A DNA stretch of 64,000 nt. Source: Dictyostelium discoideum. Its lineage: Eukaryota. The notes below the pieces were generated by a model. It was not told where the DNA came from and did no database searches. It saw nothing but the letters and a program-made list of their open reading frames with translations. Position numbers and translations under genes: made by a program. This document shows, piece after piece, positions 9,439 to 27,620 of the stretch. Location of the stretch: contig CM000151.3 of assembly GCA_000004695.1 (NCBI GenBank), positions 2,944,001 to 3,008,000 of the forward strand, read 5' to 3'. Numbering within the stretch: position 1 is the stretch's first letter; each line of letters opens with the position of its first letter.

Positions 9439-9693
9439 CAAATTATTAATAATAAAAATGATAATAATAATAATAATAATAATAATGGTGATAATGGTGA
9501 TAATGGTGATAATAATAAAAATAAAAATAATAATAATAATAATAATTTAAAAAATATTAATGATAATAATAATAATAATGATAATAATAATAAAAATGGT
9601 AATAATAATCAAATTGATTTTGACACTTTTTTACCAATATCAAAAACACCACAAAAGGTTAGTAATCGTAAAAGACTTTTCAATAAAGAATGA
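7458..9693 (+). CDS. hypothetical protein of about 674 aa, with an N-terminal mitochondrial-presequence-like segment and a C-terminal DUF559/Vsr-like (PD-(D/E)xK-type) nuclease-like region; join(7458..7714,7828..8337,8436..9693)
   Basis: Three frame-compatible pieces. Exon 1 opens MIRLVYNNFRKLPKTLLIPSFQK (basic, no acidic residues). The exon 2/3 junction AG|GTATAC ... TTATTAG|A keeps frame (split codon aga). The C-terminus reads HLDFFIPQLSLAFEYQGKQHY...RDNEKRLICKNNNITIIEIPFWWD, which resembles DUF559-type endonuclease-like domains. The intron-1 donor GTTTTT is non-consensus, so exon 1 is uncertain; an alternative start is ATG 7982. Confidence 0.5.
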
Positions 9694-9807
9694 TTTTTGA
9701 ATAAATCTAAAATTTAATCTTAAACAAAAGAAAAAAAAGTGGTTGGAAAATTTTTTTTAATTTATTTATTTGTTTAAAGAATAAAACAAATATATTATTT
9801 TTATTTC

Positions 9808-9838
<31 letters not shown>

Positions 9839-10095
9839 TTAAAATAATCTTTTAACTATAGTACTCAAATAAATAAAAAAATAAATAAAAAGTCATAAAA
9901 GAATAAAATTAAGGTTTGGAGAAAAAAAAAAAAAAAAAAAAAAATTTATTTATTTTTTTATTTATTTATTTTACAACCAATTATAACCACCATTAGATTT
10001 AAAAATTTTTTAATAAAAATTATAATATTTATTAACTTTTTGATTTATTTGAAATCAATGATTATTAATATAAATATAGCACCATTAACCACTTA

Positions 10096-19712: not shown

Positions 19713-20189
19713 ATTTTAAAAAAATTTTTTTTGTATTTATTTTTATTTTTATTTAATTTTTTTTTTTTTTATTTTTATTTTTTTTTATTTTTTTTTCTGA
19801 CCCATAAATAGTAGTTCGATTTATTCCAAGCATTGTTGGAAGAAAGAAAAAAAAAAAAACAATAAAATAACCAACTTGGTTCATTTCCAATATTTTGAAA
19901 GTTTTTTTGATTATAAAAAAAAAAAAAAAAAAACCATAAATAAAGTTTAGTCCAACCACAAAATTTTTAATTAACAAAAACATAGCCCGGCTTTTAAAAG
20001 CCACAATTTATTACAAAAAAAAAAAAAAGACAGAAAATTAAAATATGGAAATTGTATTTTTTTTTAAAATTTTTTTGTTTTTTTATTTTTTTTATTTATT
20101 TATTTATTATATTAATAATAATTATTATTATTAATTTTATAAATTGGTAATTATAATAGTACATGGGTTTTTCTTTTTTTTTTTTTTTT

Positions 20190-20239
<50 letters not shown>

Positions 20240-20373
20240 AAATTTATATTGTACAGAAGTTTAGGGAAAAAAATCACATCGTGAATTAATTTGTTTTTTA
20301 AATTTTTACAAATAATTAAATATATATACTTGGTTTTTTAATTTTTTTTTTTTTTTTCTTTTTTTTTTTATAA

Positions 20374-21274
20374 TCAATTATTTCCTTGACCATTTGTTGA
20401 AGTGGAAATTTGAATATTTTGCATTTCAACAGTCTGTTTTTCTTCATCAGATGATGATAAAGAAGATGAAGATGAACCTTCATCATTATAATTTTGTTGT
20501 AAACCATAATTATTATTTAGATTTTGTTGATTATTTACCATATTTGGATGTCTTTCCAAAGAACATTGCTCCATATCGGAACTACATTGCACATCATCAC
20601 CAGTTGGATGACCACCCATAGTTTTACCAGAAGTACCACGACTTGAACTATATGGTGATGGATTGTTATTGTTTTTATTCTTTTCCAATTTCTTTTGTAC
20701 ATCAGTAAAGTAACCAAAGAATGTGAAAACTGTTAAAATCTTTGCACCAAAATAACGCCACATTAATGGATTATTATAGATAAATGTGACAGATGCCCAA
20801 AAACCATGGGATACACTCAAATAGGTGTGGAGAATATTGAGTGCTGGTGGAAACATATTTAAACCATTTACAATACGATTAACAACTGCAAATACCCAAC
20901 AAACAAGGAAAACTATGATATAGTTGATCAATTTGAATTGGTATGTTAAATGTTTCTCTTTATTATCACTAACACCATTATGAATAACAACATAGGTATA
21001 ACGTGATGTTAAACCAACCAATACTGCTGAAATTGCCCAAATAAATAAGAATGGACCATAGAATAACCCAAATCTATATCCAGTGAAACTTACACCAATC
21101 CAACACCAATTACCAACAAATTGTACTGTATTTTTTGCCAACATAACAATTGTTGAAATTAATGGTAAACCCCAACATAATAAATAATAATATTTTTCAA
21201 ATCTTTCTGGTTCTGGTTCTCTTTTTACAATTAACATATAAATACTAATTGCTAAAAAAAAAAATTTTTAAGAG

Positions 21275-21307
<33 letters not shown>

Positions 21308-21343
21308 AGCACATTTTCAAATAATCTGATCAAATCTTTTTTT

Positions 21344-21383
<40 letters not shown>

Positions 21384-21695
21384 TTTAAACTTACCAAGAC
21401 ATAAAGTCCACAACCAACATGCAAAACTACCATATGTAATTACAATTGCATATAAATAACAAGGGAAACCACCATTGACAGCTGTATTTGTTAAAGTTAA
21501 AATTGTTGAAGGAAAATCTTTACAAAAGGAGGTAGCACAAAAACATGCAATTACTTTTGTAACATGATTACGCAAAAGTTTTAATCTCCAAAAACCAATC
21601 AACACTGCCATACAACCCAACATTGAAGAAAAATCGGCAAATAATAATAAAACCAATGATGTTTCATTGGCTGGATTTCCATCTAAAAGACCCAT
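20374..21695 (-). CDS. carA: cAMP receptor 1 (cAR1), 7-TM GPCR, 392 aa; complement(join(20374..21251,21395..21695))
   Basis: The translation [39 protein letters not shown]...TLCL|[31 protein letters not shown]...[12 protein letters not shown] matches cAR1 over its full length as recalled from memory. A single 143-nt intron (GTAAGT..TTTTTTAG) splits codon gca (Ala101). Length is 392 aa. Confidence 0.97.
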
Positions 21696-22158
21696 TTTAT
21701 TTTTTTATTTATATATATATATGTGTGAAAAATCTAGATAGTTTATGTATGTGATTGTATTTTAAATAATTTTTTTTTTTTTTTTTTTATTGTATTAATA
21801 CAAATTATTTTTTTAAATTTAGCGTTCTATAATTATTTGAAAATAAAAGAAAAGAGAGGAAAAAAAAAAATAATAATAAAAAATATGTGTAAAAAAAAAA
21901 ATAAGAAAAAAAAAAAAATAATATAATATAAAATAAAGAAAATAAAAATAAAAAAAAAAAAATAGATTAATATTTTGTAAATTGTGATTGAAAAAAAAAT
22001 TTTATTTTATTTTTTTCAATTTTTTTTTATTTTAATTGATTAATCACCTTTCAATCTCGATTGATTGAAAAAAAAATAAAAAAAAATTGGATAATCTACA
22101 AAAGTTTTTATTTTTTTTTGAAAGTTTGAGACCAAAGTTTTTTATAATAAACAATATA

Positions 22159-22194
<36 letters not shown>

Positions 22195-22559
22195 TAATAA
22201 TTTGGTTGTTTAGAATTTTATATAATGTGGAGTGTAGTGGTGGTGAACGAAGATGAAAGAAGGGGTGATTTTTTATTTATATTGTAAATAAATTTTTTTA
22301 TTCGATATAAAATGGTTTTAATTAATTTAAATTAATATCAAACAATAAAAAAAAAAAAAAAAAATTATGTAATATAAAAAAATAAAAAAAAAAAAAAAAA
22401 ATTAAAATTAAAAAAAAATTAAAAAAATAATTAATTAAAAAATATTTAATAAAATAATTTAAAAACCATAGTATCACAATTATTATTGAATCAAATAAAT
22501 TGAATCTTGGTAGTTAAAAAAAAAAGCCCACTTTTGATGTGTGGTTTGTAGTGGTAAAT

Positions 22560-22595
22560 TATTTGTGTGTTTAAATATTATTGTGTGAGTGGTGT
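22560..22595 (+). promoter_or_regulatory. G/T-rich element (GTGTGTTT...GTGTGAGTGGTGTGGGTG) about 0.9 kb upstream of the carA ATG; candidate G-box/CA-rich-type regulatory element
   Basis: A G-rich island in an otherwise more than 85% AT intergenic region, on the carA 5' side (carA is on the minus strand). Confidence 0.3.
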
Positions 22596-23655
22596 GGGTG
22601 AAAAAAAAAAAAATCCACATTCAAAAAAAAAAAACTTCAAGTGTGTTATTATTATTTTTATTATTATTATTATTATTAATTTAAATCAATTATAATTGAT
22701 ATTTATAGAACCACCCTAAGAAAAAAAAAATTTTATAATCTTTTTTTTTCTTTTTTTTTTCTATAATTTTTAGGGGTATATATATGAACAGGATGTTTTA
22801 TATCTGAGATATGGATATAACCGACAATAAACAAATAATAAATTTTTTTGAAAACAATTTAACAACATAAAAAACAACATACAAAAAAAAAAAAAACCTC
22901 CTTTGAATTGTTATTATTATTATTATTATTATTTATTTTTTTTTATTTTTTATTTTTTTATTGATTATTAAATACAAAAGAATACAAAAGAATCAAAGAA
23001 AAAAATTATTAAAGTGCAACATTTATGATGACGGTTTATAATTATTTGTTATCTCGAATTTTTGATTCTATTTATTAATAATATTAATTACCTTAAATTT
23101 ATTCGATTTATCGTTTTGATTTGATATTAGAGAGAGAGAGAGAGATAAAGTTTTAATTATATTATTATAAAAAGGATTAATTTTTATATTATTTTTTTTA
23201 TAATAAATTTAAATTTTAATTTTAATTTTATTAATTTAGCCTATTGGAAATAATTTGAACCTTTTTATTTTAAATTAAACTTTAATGATAATAATTATTA
23301 AAAAAAAAAAAAAAAAAATTATTTATTTAAAAAAAAAAAAAATAAAAAAAAAAAAAATAAAAAAAAATGATTAAAAAAAAAAGTATTTTTAAAAAAATTT
23401 ATTTTTAAATGTGAATCAAGCTCGAATCTCCATCATAAAATAAAAGGTTAGTAAAAAAAATGAAAATAAAAAAACATATTATATCATTTTGATTGCTGGG
23501 CAAATTAATCATTAGTTCTAAGATTTTTTTTTTTTTTTTTTTTTTTTTAATTTTTAAAAAAAAAAAAAAAAATGTTGTAAGAGCATTACCGTTTCACAAA
23601 ATGAAAAGACACAAAATTGAAATTAAAAATATACAGTGAAATGATTTAGTGAGTA

Positions 23656-23690
<35 letters not shown>

Positions 23691-24487
23691 GTTTAAATTA
23701 TTATAATTTTGTGTGTTTTTAAATAAATAAATTATATTTTTTTTTTTTTTTTAAGTGTCGAATTATTTTCTATTAATATCATCGATAGTGTTGAATGTGG
23801 GTTTATGATCACCCCTCAAACTTTGAAAAAAAAGACTTTTTTTATTTTTTTATTTTTTTTATTTTTTTTTTTATTTTTTTTGAATTTTGATCATTTGTGT
23901 TGATTGATTAATTTTTTTTTTTTTAACTTTTTGATTAAAAAAAAAAATCTTTACTACTCGCTTGATGGTTCCCAGCATCTTTTCATTTTTTACACTCCTA
24001 TAGGTCAAAAAGTCTATAAAAAAAAAATAAAAAAAAAAAAATAAAAAAAAATAAAAAAAAAAAAAAAAAAAAAAAAAAATTAAAAAGAAAAAATAAAATA
24101 AAATAAATAAACAAAGAGTTTTTTTCTAAAGCAAAACATACATTCATTTATTAATTAATAAATAAACTAATTATAATTATTATTATTATTTTAATTTTTT
24201 TTACTTTTAATTTTTTTTTTTTTTTTTATAAAATTTAATTTTTAAAGATTTTAACAAAATACAAAATTTTTGAATAAAACAGTGTAGTGATCTAAAAAAA
24301 GGGGCTTTTTGTTGAATTGATTAATCTATCCTTTTAAATCAGTTACAGTAGTTTGGAAATAATTAAAAATAATATTTTTTTATTTTTGACTATAGATTAA
24401 AAAAAAGGATCACAATTTCCAGATTTTTTTAAATTGTAAAAAACATGTGATTTTGATATAGTATTGAATGTCACATCTATTTTTACA

Positions 24488-24526
<39 letters not shown>

Positions 24527-24958
24527 TTTTGGGGTTTTCAGAAGTTGTTTATTAAAAAAAGAATAGAAATTAAAAAAAAAAATAATAATAAAATAAAAAT
24601 AAAAATTTAAAACATTAAATTAATAATAAATTATTAATTCTATAGAATTTTAAATTAAACAAACCACACCAAAGGCTTATTTTTTTTTTTTTTTTATTAA
24701 AAAATTTAAAAAAAAAAAAAAAAAAAGTGAAGGATAAAATTTTTTTTAAAAAATATTATTTTTATATTATTATTATTTATATTTATATTTAAAAGTATCT
24801 TCATAATAAAACTTTTTTTTTTTTTCACACAAAAAATTAATTTCTACCATTTTTTTAGTGGGGCAAAAAAGTTGATTAAAAGATATTTCATTCAGGGTAA
24901 TAGTTTAGAAAATATCAAAATAACCTCGAATCATAGGCACCCGAATTCCGGGCTTGGA

Positions 24959-24983
<25 letters not shown>

Positions 24984-24989
<6 letters not shown>

Positions 24990-25112
24990 TATCAAATAAT
25001 TTTAAAAAAAAGAAAAAAAGAAAAAATCCAATCAAATAATTTTAAAAAAAAAAAAATCCAATCAAATAATTTTTTAAAAAAAAAAAAAAAAAAAAATCTA
25101 ATCAAATAATTA
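24984..25112 (+). repeat. array of 4 direct repeats of a 17-20-nt core AAATC(C/T)(A/T)ATCAAATAATT(T), spaced 30-40 bp, embedded in poly-A
   Basis: Copies at 24984-25003, 25024-25043, 25054-25073 and 25094-25112, read directly. Located in the 3' flank of the kinase gene and about 3.3 kb upstream of carA. Confidence 0.85.
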
Positions 25113-25376
25113 TTTTTCAAAATAGAAAATTAATTATTTTTTTTATTATTTATTACATAAAAACCATTTAATACAATTAATATATTATTTTTTGTTTCAA
25201 TTTTTTTTTTTTATTTTTTTTTTATTTTTTTTTTTTATTTATTTATTATTTATTTATTTGTTTATTTATTTGTTTATTTATTTATTTACTTATTAATATA
25301 AATATTTTTGGTAAATTAGTATGATAGATGGTGATTATAAAGTATTTAATTGGTGTAGTGTATGTAATCAATTGAT

Positions 25377-27620
25377 TTATTCTTGATTCTTTGGAAGTGG
25401 AACAATTAAATTATTCCAAGTTTGAATGTTGCTTCTATATTCATTTTCAATGGTAACCAATCTACTTAAAATATCGGTACAAGTTGGTCTATTTTCGAGA
25501 TTTGGATCCCAGCAATCTTGAATCAATGAAACCAATGACTCTGGACATGCATTTGGTATTGTTGGTCTAAGGTTTTTCTTTGCTGTTTGAATAATAATTT
25601 GGAAATCATGTTGTAAATTCTAAAATAATAAAAATAAAAAGAGTTAGAAATATATTTTTTTAAAAAAAAAAAAATTAAATTTTTAAAAATACAAACCTTA
25701 TATTCTGAAAAAGGTCTTTCATATCTACCATTTATACATCTTGTGACCAATTCCCATAGGATAACAGCGATTGAGTAAACATCAGATTTACCAGAGAATT
25801 GTTCACCATAATAAACTTCTGGAGCACAATAAGCAAAGGTACCTCTCATTTTTACCAATGTTTCTAAATTTGATCCTGTATTGAAACGACTTAAACCAAA
25901 ATCACAAACCTTTATTTCCCATTTATCATTTACCAATAAATTTAAACTCTTTAAATCTCTATGAACGATTGGTGGATCCCATTTATGTAAACATTCAATA
26001 CCTCTAACTGTTTCAATTGCAAATCTAAATGTTCTTTCCCATCCAATATCCAATGAATTATTATCCATAACATGATATAAACTACCTCTTGAACAATTTT
26101 CCATTACCATACATAATTTTGGTTCCAATACTGCACCATAAAAATGTACAACATGTTTCGATCTTATGGCACTATAAAAATTAAAAAAAAAAAAAAAATA
26201 ATAAAATTTTAGTTAATATACATATATATTTCTTTTTTTCATTTTCATTTTCATTTTTTTTTTTTTTTTTTTTTTCAAAAAATAATAATAATAAATATAA
26301 AATTAAATGCTTACCTCATAATTTGGAATTCTTTTTTAAATTCTTCAATTTCTTTTGATTCAGTCATTGATTTTAATACTTTAATTGCAACTTCTTTACC
26401 TCTATATAAACCTTTATAAACTTTACCAGAACTACCAGCACCCAATTTCTCAGTATACTCCAACTCATTATCATTAATAATATTTACTTCACCAACATGT
26501 CTTAGTGTATGTAATGAATGTCTAAGTCCACTAATATCTGGTGTATCTGGTGGTGTTGGATCTTCTTCTATTATAAGTTCTGGTGTTTTTGGTTTTTTTG
26601 TTTGTTCATCTAATAATAATTAATGATAAAAATAATAATAATAATTAATAATAATAATAATATTAGTAAATAAATAAATATTTTAAAAAATAAATAAATA
26701 AATAAATAATACATACTTGCTAAATTTGAAGTTTCTTTTAAAATTCTTAATCTTGTACCAGTAGAAGTAATACCCATTTTATTTAAAATATCTTCACTCA
26801 TTTCACCCAATTCATCTAAAAACATTTCTTCCTTTAAAAAAGCATCTTTGTATTGTTCGAAACCATGTTTTTGTAACCAATCAAAGAGATCTTTATACTT
26901 TTTGATACGAGCAGTCATATCCTTGTTACCCTCTTCAACGGCCAATTGATAAGGAGTTTTTCTCTCTTTTGTACCAACACAATCAACATCAGCACCAGCC
27001 TTCAAAAGTACAGACACTAAATCCTCACGACCTAAACGTACGGCATAGTGAAGTGGTGATTCTTGAAATTGAGTTGCCAAATTAACGTTGGCACCATTTT
27101 TCAATAAGAGACCAACCATCATAAGACGTACTGAATTGTTAAAGATTGCCTTGTGTAACGGTGTTTCACCATTCTTATTTTGAGCATTCACATTGACACC
27201 CTTTTGAATGAATAGTTGAAATGGTTCTTGACAATTTGGTGATCTAAATTTCTGGCAAAAGTAGTGAATTGGTGTGTTTAAATCATCGTTTTGTACATCT
27301 ACATTAATGTTTTCATATTGTAATACCCTCATCAATATCCTATCATCACTACTCACTGCTTGATGTAATGCTGAAAATCCATTCTTGTCAAAGGTATTTA
27401 TATCTGCCTTTAATGTTACACATAAACTCAACAAGAGTTCCACCATCTCTTCATTATTATTCTTTAATGCTATAGTTAATGCTGATTGTCCATATTGATC
27501 AAATGATGTTAAATTACTTTTACTAATCTTTTTTTTACTTGATAATTTCTTAACTTTTGTAACATCATTTTGTTCAACTGCACTAAATAATTGATGTTGT
27601 TGTTGTTGAGTTGATGACAT
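25377..27620 (-). CDS. ankyrin-repeat plus SAM-domain TKL-type protein kinase, about 638 aa; complement(join(25377..25619,25697..26171,26315..26609,26717..27620))
   Basis: Exon 1 has ANK repeats (GETPLHKA..., SPLHYAVRLGREDLVSVLLKAGADV) and a SAM domain (DLFDWLQKHGFEQYKDAFLKEEMFLDELGEMSEDILNKMGIT). Exon 2 carries the kinase glycine loop LGAGSSGKVYKG and VAIKVL. Exon 3 carries HRDLKSLNLLV, DFGLS and APE. Exon 4 ends ...LPKNQE*. Introns are GTATGT/GTAAGC/GTTTGT...AG and phase-consistent. Confidence 0.85.

Follow-up and report, generated by a model that had tools for sequence, protein, structure and literature searches.

What does the long 5' flank of the Dictyostelium discoideum carA gene contain, and which of its motifs have been maintained? 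The carA gene is central to cAMP signalling in Dictyostelium, and its two-promoter structure is a textbook case of the adoption of cAMP for aggregation by group-4 species. Both the locus and its dual promoter have been described before; at issue here is the make-up of the sequence between carA and its upstream neighbour, spkA. A first-pass annotation of the window (the whole 64-kb stretch of DNA analysed) had picked out several candidate cis-elements in this flank, and the best-conserved blocks are ones that it had left unflagged. It is quite probable that the 3.7 kb from the spkA stop codon to the carA ATG represent a compound regulatory region, in which a four-copy repeat array has no conserved role.

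The carA gene, its neighbour and its flank

The two-exon gene on the minus strand at 20374-21695 is carA, which encodes cAR1, a G-protein-coupled receptor of the Dicty_CAR family. The coding part of the first coding exon (21395-21695, minus strand, ATG at 21695-21693) is separated from exon 2, which includes the stop codon (20374-21251, minus strand), by a 143-nt GT-AG intron (21252-21394, minus strand, GTAAGT...TTTAG, 90% A+T). As first annotated, the gene translates exactly to cAR1: the spliced coding sequence of 1179 nt gives a product of 392 aa with 100% identity to CAR1_DICDI (P0001) over 100% of its length, and RNA-seq contigs L003-L006 translate to the same spliced protein. The product (accessions EAL70653.1 and EAL70721.1) carries the precomputed Pfam domains PF05462 and PF00002 and has the Dicty_CAR domain.

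Upstream on the same strand is spkA, whose spliced 638-aa product matches stress-activated protein kinase alpha exactly. It has this position and strand in all nine other group-4 loci, the arrangement being kept in ten genomes. The spkA stop codon, ending at 25377, is the distal border of the carA 5' flank (21696-25376; 3,681 bp, 14.3% G+C). The flank was originally described as unusually long, and in length it exceeds the five other intergenic gaps at the locus (228-1,117 bp, strain locus L001) 3- to 16-fold. This length is maintained throughout the D. discoideum complex (3.5-3.8 kb), and in D. purpureum the flank measures 3.0 kb. The 1993 abstract of Louis, Saxe and Kimmel is said to describe alternatively spliced carA mRNAs that encode the same protein. 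Reviews describe a proximal post-aggregative (late) promoter and a distal aggregation (early) promoter (PMC7934950, PMC5055082), which bears out the separate promoters that the annotation had mentioned. In addition, carA-1 is a direct ChIP-seq target of the GATA factor GtaC at three developmental stages (PMC4506546).

How much of the flank is conserved?

The flank was aligned from ten Dictyostelium genomes, and a base was scored as identical when it is the same in all of D. citrinum, D. dimigraforme and D. firmibasis. Because A/T identity is inflated by the alignment of 85% A+T DNA, reliance was placed on G/C positions, exact motifs and neighbouring regions as controls. By this measure, 49.5% of the G/C bases of the flank are identical in the three species; the intergenic DNA 5' of spkA scores 9%, and that 3' of carA 13%. 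From -800 to -2,900, thirteen exact motifs (9-27 nt) each occur once, and in the same order, in nine genomes, and conservation drops to baseline (0.28) between -3,000 and -3,500. The alignment thus shows the approximately 2.9 kb beside carA (roughly 21696-24560) as a mosaic of 15-130-nt blocks under purifying selection, with A/T homopolymers and microsatellites that evolve freely between them. No copies of the conserved blocks are found elsewhere in the 64-kb window. Stretches with at least 50% G+C over 18 nt number nine in the flank, among them the three G/C-rich items noticed at first.

What might these blocks be? They would represent transcription factor sites, core promoters and signals of leader exons and introns, and the outermost 0.7 kb or so (about 24700-25376) would consist of spacer and the spkA 3' end.

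A predicted leader exon, 5'-UTR intron and proximal promoter

Conservation is deepest close to the gene. The motifs of the proximal 410 bp or so are collinear as far as D. purpureum, whereas the distal part cannot be aligned with that species; five proximal motifs have the same order in D. discoideum and D. purpureum, and their distances from the ATG differ by no more than 12 nt between the two. The predicted 5'-UTR part of the ATG exon (21696-21826, minus strand) is transcribed over at least 55 nt, colinear with the genome: RNA-seq contigs reach 23-55 nt upstream of the ATG, with L003-L006 extending to -55. An acceptor-like TTATAG/ (the slash denotes the boundary) ending at 21827 is kept in 10 of 10 genomes, and a donor-like site at 22047 is the sole one that is 100% conserved in all species, D. 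purpureum included. In D. discoideum and D. purpureum alike, the donor is at -355 and the acceptor at about -130. These sites likely delimit a 5'-UTR intron of 221 nt (21827-22047, minus strand; AAAG/GTGATT...TTATAG/AACG, 91% A+T), also kept in D. purpureum; its composition and boundaries match those of confirmed local introns. An upstream leader exon would then end in AAAG at 22048 and be spliced over 22047-21827 to the ATG exon, a layout that D. purpureum appears to share.

The predicted donor is part of a deeply conserved block at 22036-22105 (minus strand), with the sequence TTGTAGATTATCCAAT...TCAATCGAGATTGAAAG/GTGATTAATCAAT. Positions 22093-22036 are 0.91 identical in the three comparison species, with every G/C base kept, and the motifs of the block are also present in D. 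purpureum in unchanged order. Further upstream, a TATA-like TATATAAAA (22224-22216) is followed by a sense-strand T27 tract (22194-22168) that is present in all species of the complex. According to a published rule, the start site follows the end of a poly-T tract by about 2 bp (PMC3371697); the segment 22168-22224 (minus strand) is accordingly predicted to be a proximal core promoter, with transcription starting near 22166.

Is there a second leader? A candidate donor, AAG/GTAA, with the exon end at 23092 and the intron start at 23091, lies within conserved blocks at 23009-23110 (minus strand). The string TT(A/T)AGGTAA occurs once in each of nine genomes of the complex, and the site may serve as a second donor. 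A layout with two start sites, and with leader exons joined to the common coding exon, fits the acceptor at 21827, the donor at 22047, the donor-like site at 23091 and the candidate start sites flanked by poly-T.

The G/T-rich islands

Two G/T-rich islands of the flank had been annotated as G-box/CAE-like. Both are present where they were placed, and only the second carries a heptamer of the type bound by GBF, whose response element, typically present as pairs with short spacing, is (T/G)G(T/G)G(T/G)G(T/G) (PMC2257962). The first island (22230-22265, plus strand) is C/T-rich on the carA sense strand and has no GBF heptamer. It overlaps a conserved block at 22254-22288, directly upstream of the TATA-like box; it is 0.61 identical in the three comparison species (66th percentile), and the adjoining block is 0.80 identical. 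The second island (22583-22600, plus strand) reads GTGTGAGTGGTGTGGGTG, or CACCCACACCACTCACAC at -905 on the sense strand, and contains two overlapping GBF-type heptamers; four such heptamers are found in 22538-22599, where the paired-site pattern occurs with at most 1 mismatch.

The 18-mer GTGTGAGTGGTGTGGGTG itself is 0.50 identical, which is the 49th percentile of the flank, and a C/A-rich run is found at its position in every species with differing exact sequence. The surroundings are better conserved. The island is part of a module of about 160 bp (22470-22634, minus strand, -775 to -940), recognized by alignment, in which the order is T-run, GAATGTGGA, T-run, C/A-rich run, TAATATTTAAACACACA, CAAACCACACATCAAAAGTGGGC, T-run and AACTACCAAGATTCAATTTATTTGATT; the flanking motifs are exact in 9 of 9 genomes of the D. 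discoideum complex.

The flank as a whole has seven GBF-type heptamers compared with 0.59 expected, or 1.9 per kb compared with 0.92 per kb across the window. They fall into two clusters, each C-rich on the sense strand of carA. Counterparts exist in every species examined, D. purpureum among them, and all have a C/A-rich cluster on the same strand at about the place of the second island. Comparable G/T clusters number about five in the 64-kb window, so that their presence in the flank is not special. The heptamer is short and degenerate.

The second island would be a degenerate C/A-rich element of the G-box/CAE type that most likely either binds a zinc-finger factor of the GBF type or belongs to a core promoter. 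Might the latter be its actual role, so that the island lies in a core promoter or begins a transcript leader and is no upstream GBF-type enhancer? The island directly follows a sense-strand poly-T tract, with another 85 nt downstream. The ends of the conserved poly-T tracts, at 22623, 22601 and 22516, are followed by GAATGTGGA (1.00), the C/A run and AACTACCAAG... (1.00), as would be expected for start sites under the poly-T rule (PMC3371697), and a canonical TATAAATA is nearby at 22707-22700. The same island, however, also fits the GBF heptamer and the paired-site pattern, and the two roles are not mutually exclusive. We regard the core promoter or leader reading as possible but somewhat doubtful.

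The distal blocks

The most striking conservation is found further upstream, on the minus strand. A 132-nt block at 23405-23536 (…TGCCCAGCAATCAAAATGATATAATATG…TACTAACC…GATGGAGATTCGAGCTTG…) is 0.90 identical in the three species (99.8th percentile), with 93% of its G/C bases kept and its exact motifs collinear in all genomes of the complex. The most conserved block, GAGGGGTGATCATAAACCCACATTCAACACTATCGATGATATTAATAGAA at 23765-23826, is exact in the genomes of the complex, 0.94 identical (99.7th percentile) and has kept all its G/C bases. Together with ACACACA at 23710-23716 it makes up the other of the two groups of GBF-type heptamers (positions -2107 and -2021). Directly after a long sense-strand T-rich tract comes the block ATAGACTTTTTGACCTATAGGAG…GGAACCATCAAGCGAG at 23948-24018 (0.76 identical), and the most distal conserved blocks (24290-24545; 0.73-0.88 identical) are at 24290-24355, 24398-24455 and 24520-24545, the last with the sequence CTGAAAACCCCAAAATA.

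Could the distal blocks (about 23400-24560) be part of an unannotated non-coding transcription unit that stands on its own between spkA and carA, and have no part in carA regulation? Homopolymer tracts flank several of them, the 132-nt block has donor-like and branch-point-like strings, and a unit of about 435 bp (24524-24958) between a sense-strand T27 and an A34 would fit the start/end rule on either strand. The interior of this 435-bp unit, however, is at baseline conservation, and the carA flank has no ORF of at least 60 aa and no match to an Rfam family or tRNA. The distal carA promoter described in reviews (PMC7934950, PMC5055082) explains the blocks more simply, and a separate unit is thus unlikely.

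A related proposal is that the mosaic from -0.8 to -2.9 kb exceeds the published early promoter and represents a long-range enhancer cluster or includes an unannotated non-coding unit, specific to the complex and completely turned over with respect to D. purpureum, with the proximal leader exon and intron kept. We consider this improbable. If true, it would offer a base-level view of the addition of a distal aggregation promoter to an older gene and of its later evolution. An enhancer cluster at -0.8 to -2.9 kb would be unusually long-range for a compact genome.

The near-palindrome and the repeat array

The remaining two of the original candidates are both in the single stretch of the flank whose conservation falls to baseline. 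The near-palindrome CACCCGAATTCCGGGC, with its EcoRI site, is located at 24938-24953 (plus strand) as reported, 7 nt downstream of a sense-strand T27 tract (24986-24960). Its conservation does not support a role as a cis-element: it is 0.38 identical (34th percentile), and other species retain just its core, GCYCGGAA, without the symmetry.

The array (24984-25111, plus strand) consists of four copies of AAATC(C/T)(A/T)ATCAAATAATT with A-runs between them. The four copies were correctly recognized, but they are not, as had been thought, evenly spaced, and the array ends at 25111, not 25112; the copies start at 24984, 25024, 25054 and 25094, with start-to-start spacings of 40, 30 and 40. Tandem Repeats Finder gives a period of 40 in four copies (score 184) or of 70 in two, with 91% matches. 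With up to 2 mismatches, the repeat 18-mer is present four times in the 64-kb window compared with 0.28 expected, always within the array. The copy number across strains and species is 4, 3, 3, 1, 2, 3 and 0; three D. discoideum strains have 4, 3 and 3, D. cf. discoideum has 1 and D. firmibasis 0. At 0.10 identical, below the 1st percentile, the array is the least conserved segment of the flank. As it is poorly conserved and varies in copy number between strains, it is not a conserved cis-element. The variation in copy number makes it an ordinary minisatellite, with head-to-tail copies, copy-number polymorphism and lack of cross-species conservation; it is A/T-rich and prone to slippage.

Might the array still have a lineage-restricted role, either as a lineage-specific multimerised factor site or as a poly(dA:dT) nucleosome-excluding boundary between the spkA terminator and the carA domain? 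The repeat is real and non-random, two copies contain CCAAT, the core of the repeat unit, AATTATTTGAT, is common to D. discoideum and D. citrinum, and an organising role for genes and chromatin has been reported for poly-A/T tracts in D. discoideum (PMC3371697). Against this, CCAAT is missing from the copies of other strains, and the low conservation and the variation in copy number given above also argue the other way. Such a role is very unlikely.

Nor does the array seem to be a part of spkA. It is on the same strand, 266-393 nt downstream of the spkA stop codon, and the spkA contigs, one of which continues for 48 nt or more beyond the stop, end before it. However, AATAAA repeats and then the first sense-strand poly-A tract, at 25236, begin 88-141 nt past the stop and more than 120 nt before the array; the homopolymer-tract rule for transcript ends (PMC3371697) places the end of the transcript before the array, and alignable 3'-UTR sequence also stops short of it. 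With the stop codon at 25379-25377, the predicted spkA 3' UTR would occupy 25237-25376 (minus strand). The array is probably beyond the end of spkA, and there is little chance that it is 3'-UTR sequence.

Significance and relation to known systems

A useful by-product is a comparative map of constraint across the 3.7-kb flank. It directs attention to 22036-22105, 22470-22634, 23405-23536, 23765-23826, 23948-24018 and 24290-24545, and away from the palindrome and the repeat array.

How do the elements compare with those already described? The array resembles the A/T-rich intergenic minisatellites of Dictyostelium in its 30-40-nt head-to-tail units, its varying copy number among strains and species and its unconserved sequence, and no difference from them was found. 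With the C/A-rich GBF elements of post-aggregative genes such as cprB, cotC and the sigN genes, the second island shares closely spaced heptamer pairs (PMC2257962) and a position upstream of a promoter described in the literature as post-aggregative; it differs in that its exact sequence drifts between species, and the island at 22230-22265 does not match these elements. The published carA dual promoter (Louis 1993, in the account given by PMC7934950 and PMC5055082) concerns the same gene, the long flank is as expected from it, and no difference is apparent; the conserved common acceptor and upstream donor-like sites seen here fit alternative leader exons. Reviews give the same layout, with a distal aggregation promoter and one or more proximal late promoters, for acaA and pdsA (PMC5055082).

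The carA locus and its long 5' flank

The carA reading frame comprises 1,179 nt on the minus strand of a window of 20.9% G+C, running from the ATG at 21695 to 21395 and, past an intron at 21394-21252 (minus strand, GTAAGT...TTTAG), from 21251 to 20374. The encoded protein, 392 aa long, matches D. discoideum cyclic AMP receptor 1 from end to end at 100% identity, which confirms the first-pass annotation of the gene as cAR1; the AX4 entries EAL70653.1 and EAL70721.1 are among the accessions matched. The nearest gene upstream, on the same strand, is spkA, whose four exons, once spliced, encode 638 aa that match the database sequence of stress-activated protein kinase alpha exactly. With the last base of the spkA stop codon at 25377, the 5' flank of carA spans 21696-25376 (3,681 bp, 14% G+C, 527 G/C bases).

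Is this flank unusual? In a second D. discoideum strain the spkA-carA gap is 3,689 bp, compared with 228-1,117 bp for five other intergenic gaps at the locus. Gene order and long gap are retained in nine other loci of group 4; the gap measures 3.5-3.8 kb across the D. discoideum species complex, and D. purpureum has one of 2,969 bp. Outside group 4, the flanks of two cAR genes, 1.2 kb and 1.8 kb long, are shared with divergently transcribed neighbours. According to reviews, carA is driven by a proximal promoter in post-aggregative cells and by a distal one during aggregation, and the distal promoter is missing outside group 4 (PMC7934950; PMC5055082; PMC4739590). Linking the long flank to dual promoters, as had been proposed, is sound. 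carA-1 is also listed among the direct targets of GtaC in ChIP-seq, with binding at three stages (PMC4506546).

Several side observations concern this layout. In Cavenderia fasciculata (comparison locus L015, 4906-9354), a cAR-family gene and a PDEase_II (class II phosphodiesterase) gene are arranged head to head, 1.8 kb apart, and may constitute a linked cAMP-signalling gene pair in a group-1 species. In D. cf. discoideum (L012, 3955-7000), the deposited gene call for the spkA orthologue is 688 aa, lacks a Pfam hit and ends about 700 bp later than in the other genomes; this is probably a mis-annotated 3' extension running into the carA flank. An (AT)n run just 5' of the carA ATG (21705-21725) is one AT unit shorter in the strain represented by RNA-seq contigs (L003-L006) than in the window.

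Constraint across the flank

The flank was aligned across ten genomes: the window, two more D. discoideum strains, two D. cf. discoideum, two D. citrinum, D. dimigraforme, D. firmibasis and D. purpureum. Within the complex, identity to the window declines from 95% to 76%. D. purpureum, at 59%, is essentially unalignable, and the distal flank gave no significant collinear match to that species. Because identity at A/T positions is inflated at this base composition, three safeguards were adopted: G/C positions only, neighbouring controls and an alignment-free motif check. Of the 527 G/C bases, 49.5% are identical in all three of D. citrinum, D. dimigraforme and D. firmibasis, against 9% in the spkA 5' intergenic region and 13% in the carA 3' intergenic region under the same alignment procedure. 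The alignment-free check gave thirteen exact motifs of 9-27 nt between -800 and -2,900 (counted from the carA ATG), each present once and in unchanged order in the nine complex genomes. Together, the G/C identity above controls and the collinear exact motifs show constraint much stronger than in ordinary intergenic DNA at the locus. By 500-bp bins it extends from the ATG to about -3,000, with baseline (0.28) reached at -3,000 to -3,500.

The conservation score of an element is the share of its bases at which all three comparison species agree with the window; percentiles were taken among flank segments of equal length. The best-conserved blocks are 23765-23826 (0.94) and 22036-22093 (0.91), both with all G/C kept, followed by 23405-23536 (0.90), 21960-21990 (0.90), 24290-24355 (0.88) and 21820-21842 (0.87). 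None was among the elements flagged earlier, and conserved blocks have no second copy elsewhere in the window.

A hidden protein gene in the flank was considered and rejected, as there is no open reading frame of at least 60 aa and those present (up to 51 aa) are low-complexity. Two small sense-strand frames (22483-22620 and 23405-23512), taken as a proxy for a transcribed leader, match no database record and are uninformative. A known non-coding RNA was likewise rejected, since nothing in the whole window reaches the gathering score of an Rfam family and no tRNA is present, as was a dispersed repeat or mobile element, since the flank matches the rest of the window in low-complexity A/T runs only.

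Some blocks have features of their own. The 132-nt block at 23405-23536, 90% identical in three other species, contains TACTAAC, which resembles a yeast branch point, on the sense strand of carA, and AAG|GTTAGT, which resembles a donor site, on the other strand; in D. firmibasis its middle is interrupted by a T-rich insertion of about 40 nt. Two adjacent perfect short palindromes, TCAATCGAGATTGA and TGATTAATCA, lie in the most deeply conserved block (22036-22070) and are only partly retained in D. purpureum. (CT)n and (AAT)n microsatellites (23129-23145, 22646-22678 and 24170-24190) change length strongly between species, with about 60 AAT units in D. dimigraforme and a long run also in D. firmibasis, while adjacent blocks remain exact.

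G/T-rich islands, palindrome and repeat array

All motifs listed in the first-pass annotation are present at the positions it assigned, and as candidate cis-elements they fare differently. The island at 22555-22600 (score 0.48, 51st percentile) and the 18-mer G/T box within it (22583-22600; 0.50, 49th percentile) are average for the flank. The 18-mer sits within a conserved module of about 160 bp (22470-22634); every complex genome has exact copies of its flanks GAATGTGGA, CAAACCACACATCAAA and AACTACCAAGATTCAATTTATTTGATT, and its C/A run is different in each species. The island at 22230-22265 (0.61, 66th percentile) overlaps a conserved block at 22254-22288 (0.80), with a TATA-like TATATAAAA and a T27 tract just downstream.

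For GBF, the published response element reads (T/G)G(T/G)G(T/G)G(T/G) (PMC2257962). Seven matches occur in the flank, with 0.59 expected from first-order Markov simulations, and six of the seven have the C-rich strand as the carA sense strand. They form two clusters, at -849 to -904, noticed earlier, and at -2,021 to -2,107, previously missed. Clusters at similar positions are found in every complex species, and those of D. purpureum are at -641 to -776 and -1,731 to -1,772. The motif is a weak one, with 0.92 matches per kb over the whole window and five comparable clusters in 64 kb; a match in the flank is a lead rather than proof.

The palindrome at 24938-24953 (0.38, 34th percentile) does not stand as a conserved element: only its core GCYCGGAA is retained, and the symmetry is gone in other species. 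An EcoRI site lies within it at 24943-24948. The repeat array at 24984-25111 is genuine, with a Tandem Repeats Finder score of 184; its 18-mer, at up to two mismatches, occurs four times in 64 kb (0.28 expected), always inside the array. The four copies that had been described are present, but their starts (24984, 25024, 25054 and 25094) are spaced 40/30/40 rather than evenly. Two other D. discoideum strains have three copies each and D. cf. discoideum a single degenerate one; the two D. citrinum strains carry two and three copies of variant sequence, and D. firmibasis has none. CCAAT, found in two window copies, is missing from the other strains. The array behaves as a minisatellite, and with variable copy number and a score of 0.10 (below the 1st percentile) it is not a conserved cis-element. 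The earlier interpretation holds in part: for the gene, for the length of its flank and for one G/T box, but not for the palindrome or the array.

A predicted 5'-UTR intron and transcript limits

The proximal part of the flank is more deeply conserved than the rest. Five motifs keep the same order in all ten genomes: TTGTAGATT (-406 in D. discoideum, -401 in D. purpureum), ATCGAGA (-366, -365), AAGGTGATTA (-355 in both), TTTACAAAA (-286, -296) and TAYAGAA (-136, -124). The D. purpureum sequence between them is unalignable, and none was found in cAR genes outside group 4. The region corresponds to 21827-22105 on the minus strand of the window and to 9540-9880 of the D. purpureum locus (L007).

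What might these motifs represent? AAAG|GTGATT is the sole donor-like site kept in all species, and a conserved acceptor-like TTATAG|AA follows a pyrimidine-rich stretch. The 221 nt from donor (22047) to acceptor (21827) have an A+T fraction of 0.91 and boundaries as in confirmed local introns. From these features we infer a putative 221-nt intron in the 5' UTR, preceded by a leader exon whose last base would be 22048. Another donor-like site, AAG|GTAA (23092|23091), is retained across the complex and could close a leader exon lying more distally. Two donor-like sites and one acceptor would fit alternative leader exons sharing that acceptor.

Chang et al. found that sense-strand poly-T ends about 2 bp before a transcription start and sense-strand poly-A begins about 1 bp past a transcript end (PMC3371697). 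Candidate start sites are thereby suggested where conserved poly-T tracts give way to conserved sequence, the tracts ending at 22168, 22516, 22601 and 22623, and 24018; a further poly-T tract, which ends at 23300, may also mark a start. In spkA, the predicted end is placed near 25237 by repeated AATAAA and by the first long tract of poly-A, at 25236; the 3' UTR would then be about 140 nt, ending more than 120 nt before the array. Downstream of carA (20223-20295), conserved ACAAATTAATTCACGATGTGATTTT and TGTACAATATAAATTTATTT followed by poly-A seem to mark where the 3' UTR stops, with the transcript end predicted near 20231. Further downstream, conservation of a DUSE-like ACCCATAA (19800-19807) and a perfect palindrome GGCTTTTAAAAGCC (about 19989-20002) stops at D. 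cf. discoideum, and both were set aside.

Contigs from public RNA-seq assemblies include 23-55 nt of colinear 5' UTR for carA and, for spkA, 20-48 nt of 3' UTR past the stop; as assembly breaks at homopolymers, the contig ends do not mark the start sites or the poly(A) site of spkA. A full-text literature search outside the primary mapping papers yielded no mapped coordinates for the early or late carA promoters or the CRTF site. Separately, a unit of about 435 bp (24524-24958, within 24490-24986) has a T27 at one boundary and an A34 at the other, both on the sense strand, which agrees with the poly-T/poly-A rule of Chang et al. whichever strand is read. Its ends are conserved and its interior is not; it could be a small unannotated transcript.

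Relation to known systems

What the comparative map and the predicted 5'-UTR intron add is modest but testable. The carA locus was already known, as were the long flank and the dual promoter, and G-box-like islands and A/T-rich minisatellites are ordinary in Dictyostelium intergenic DNA.
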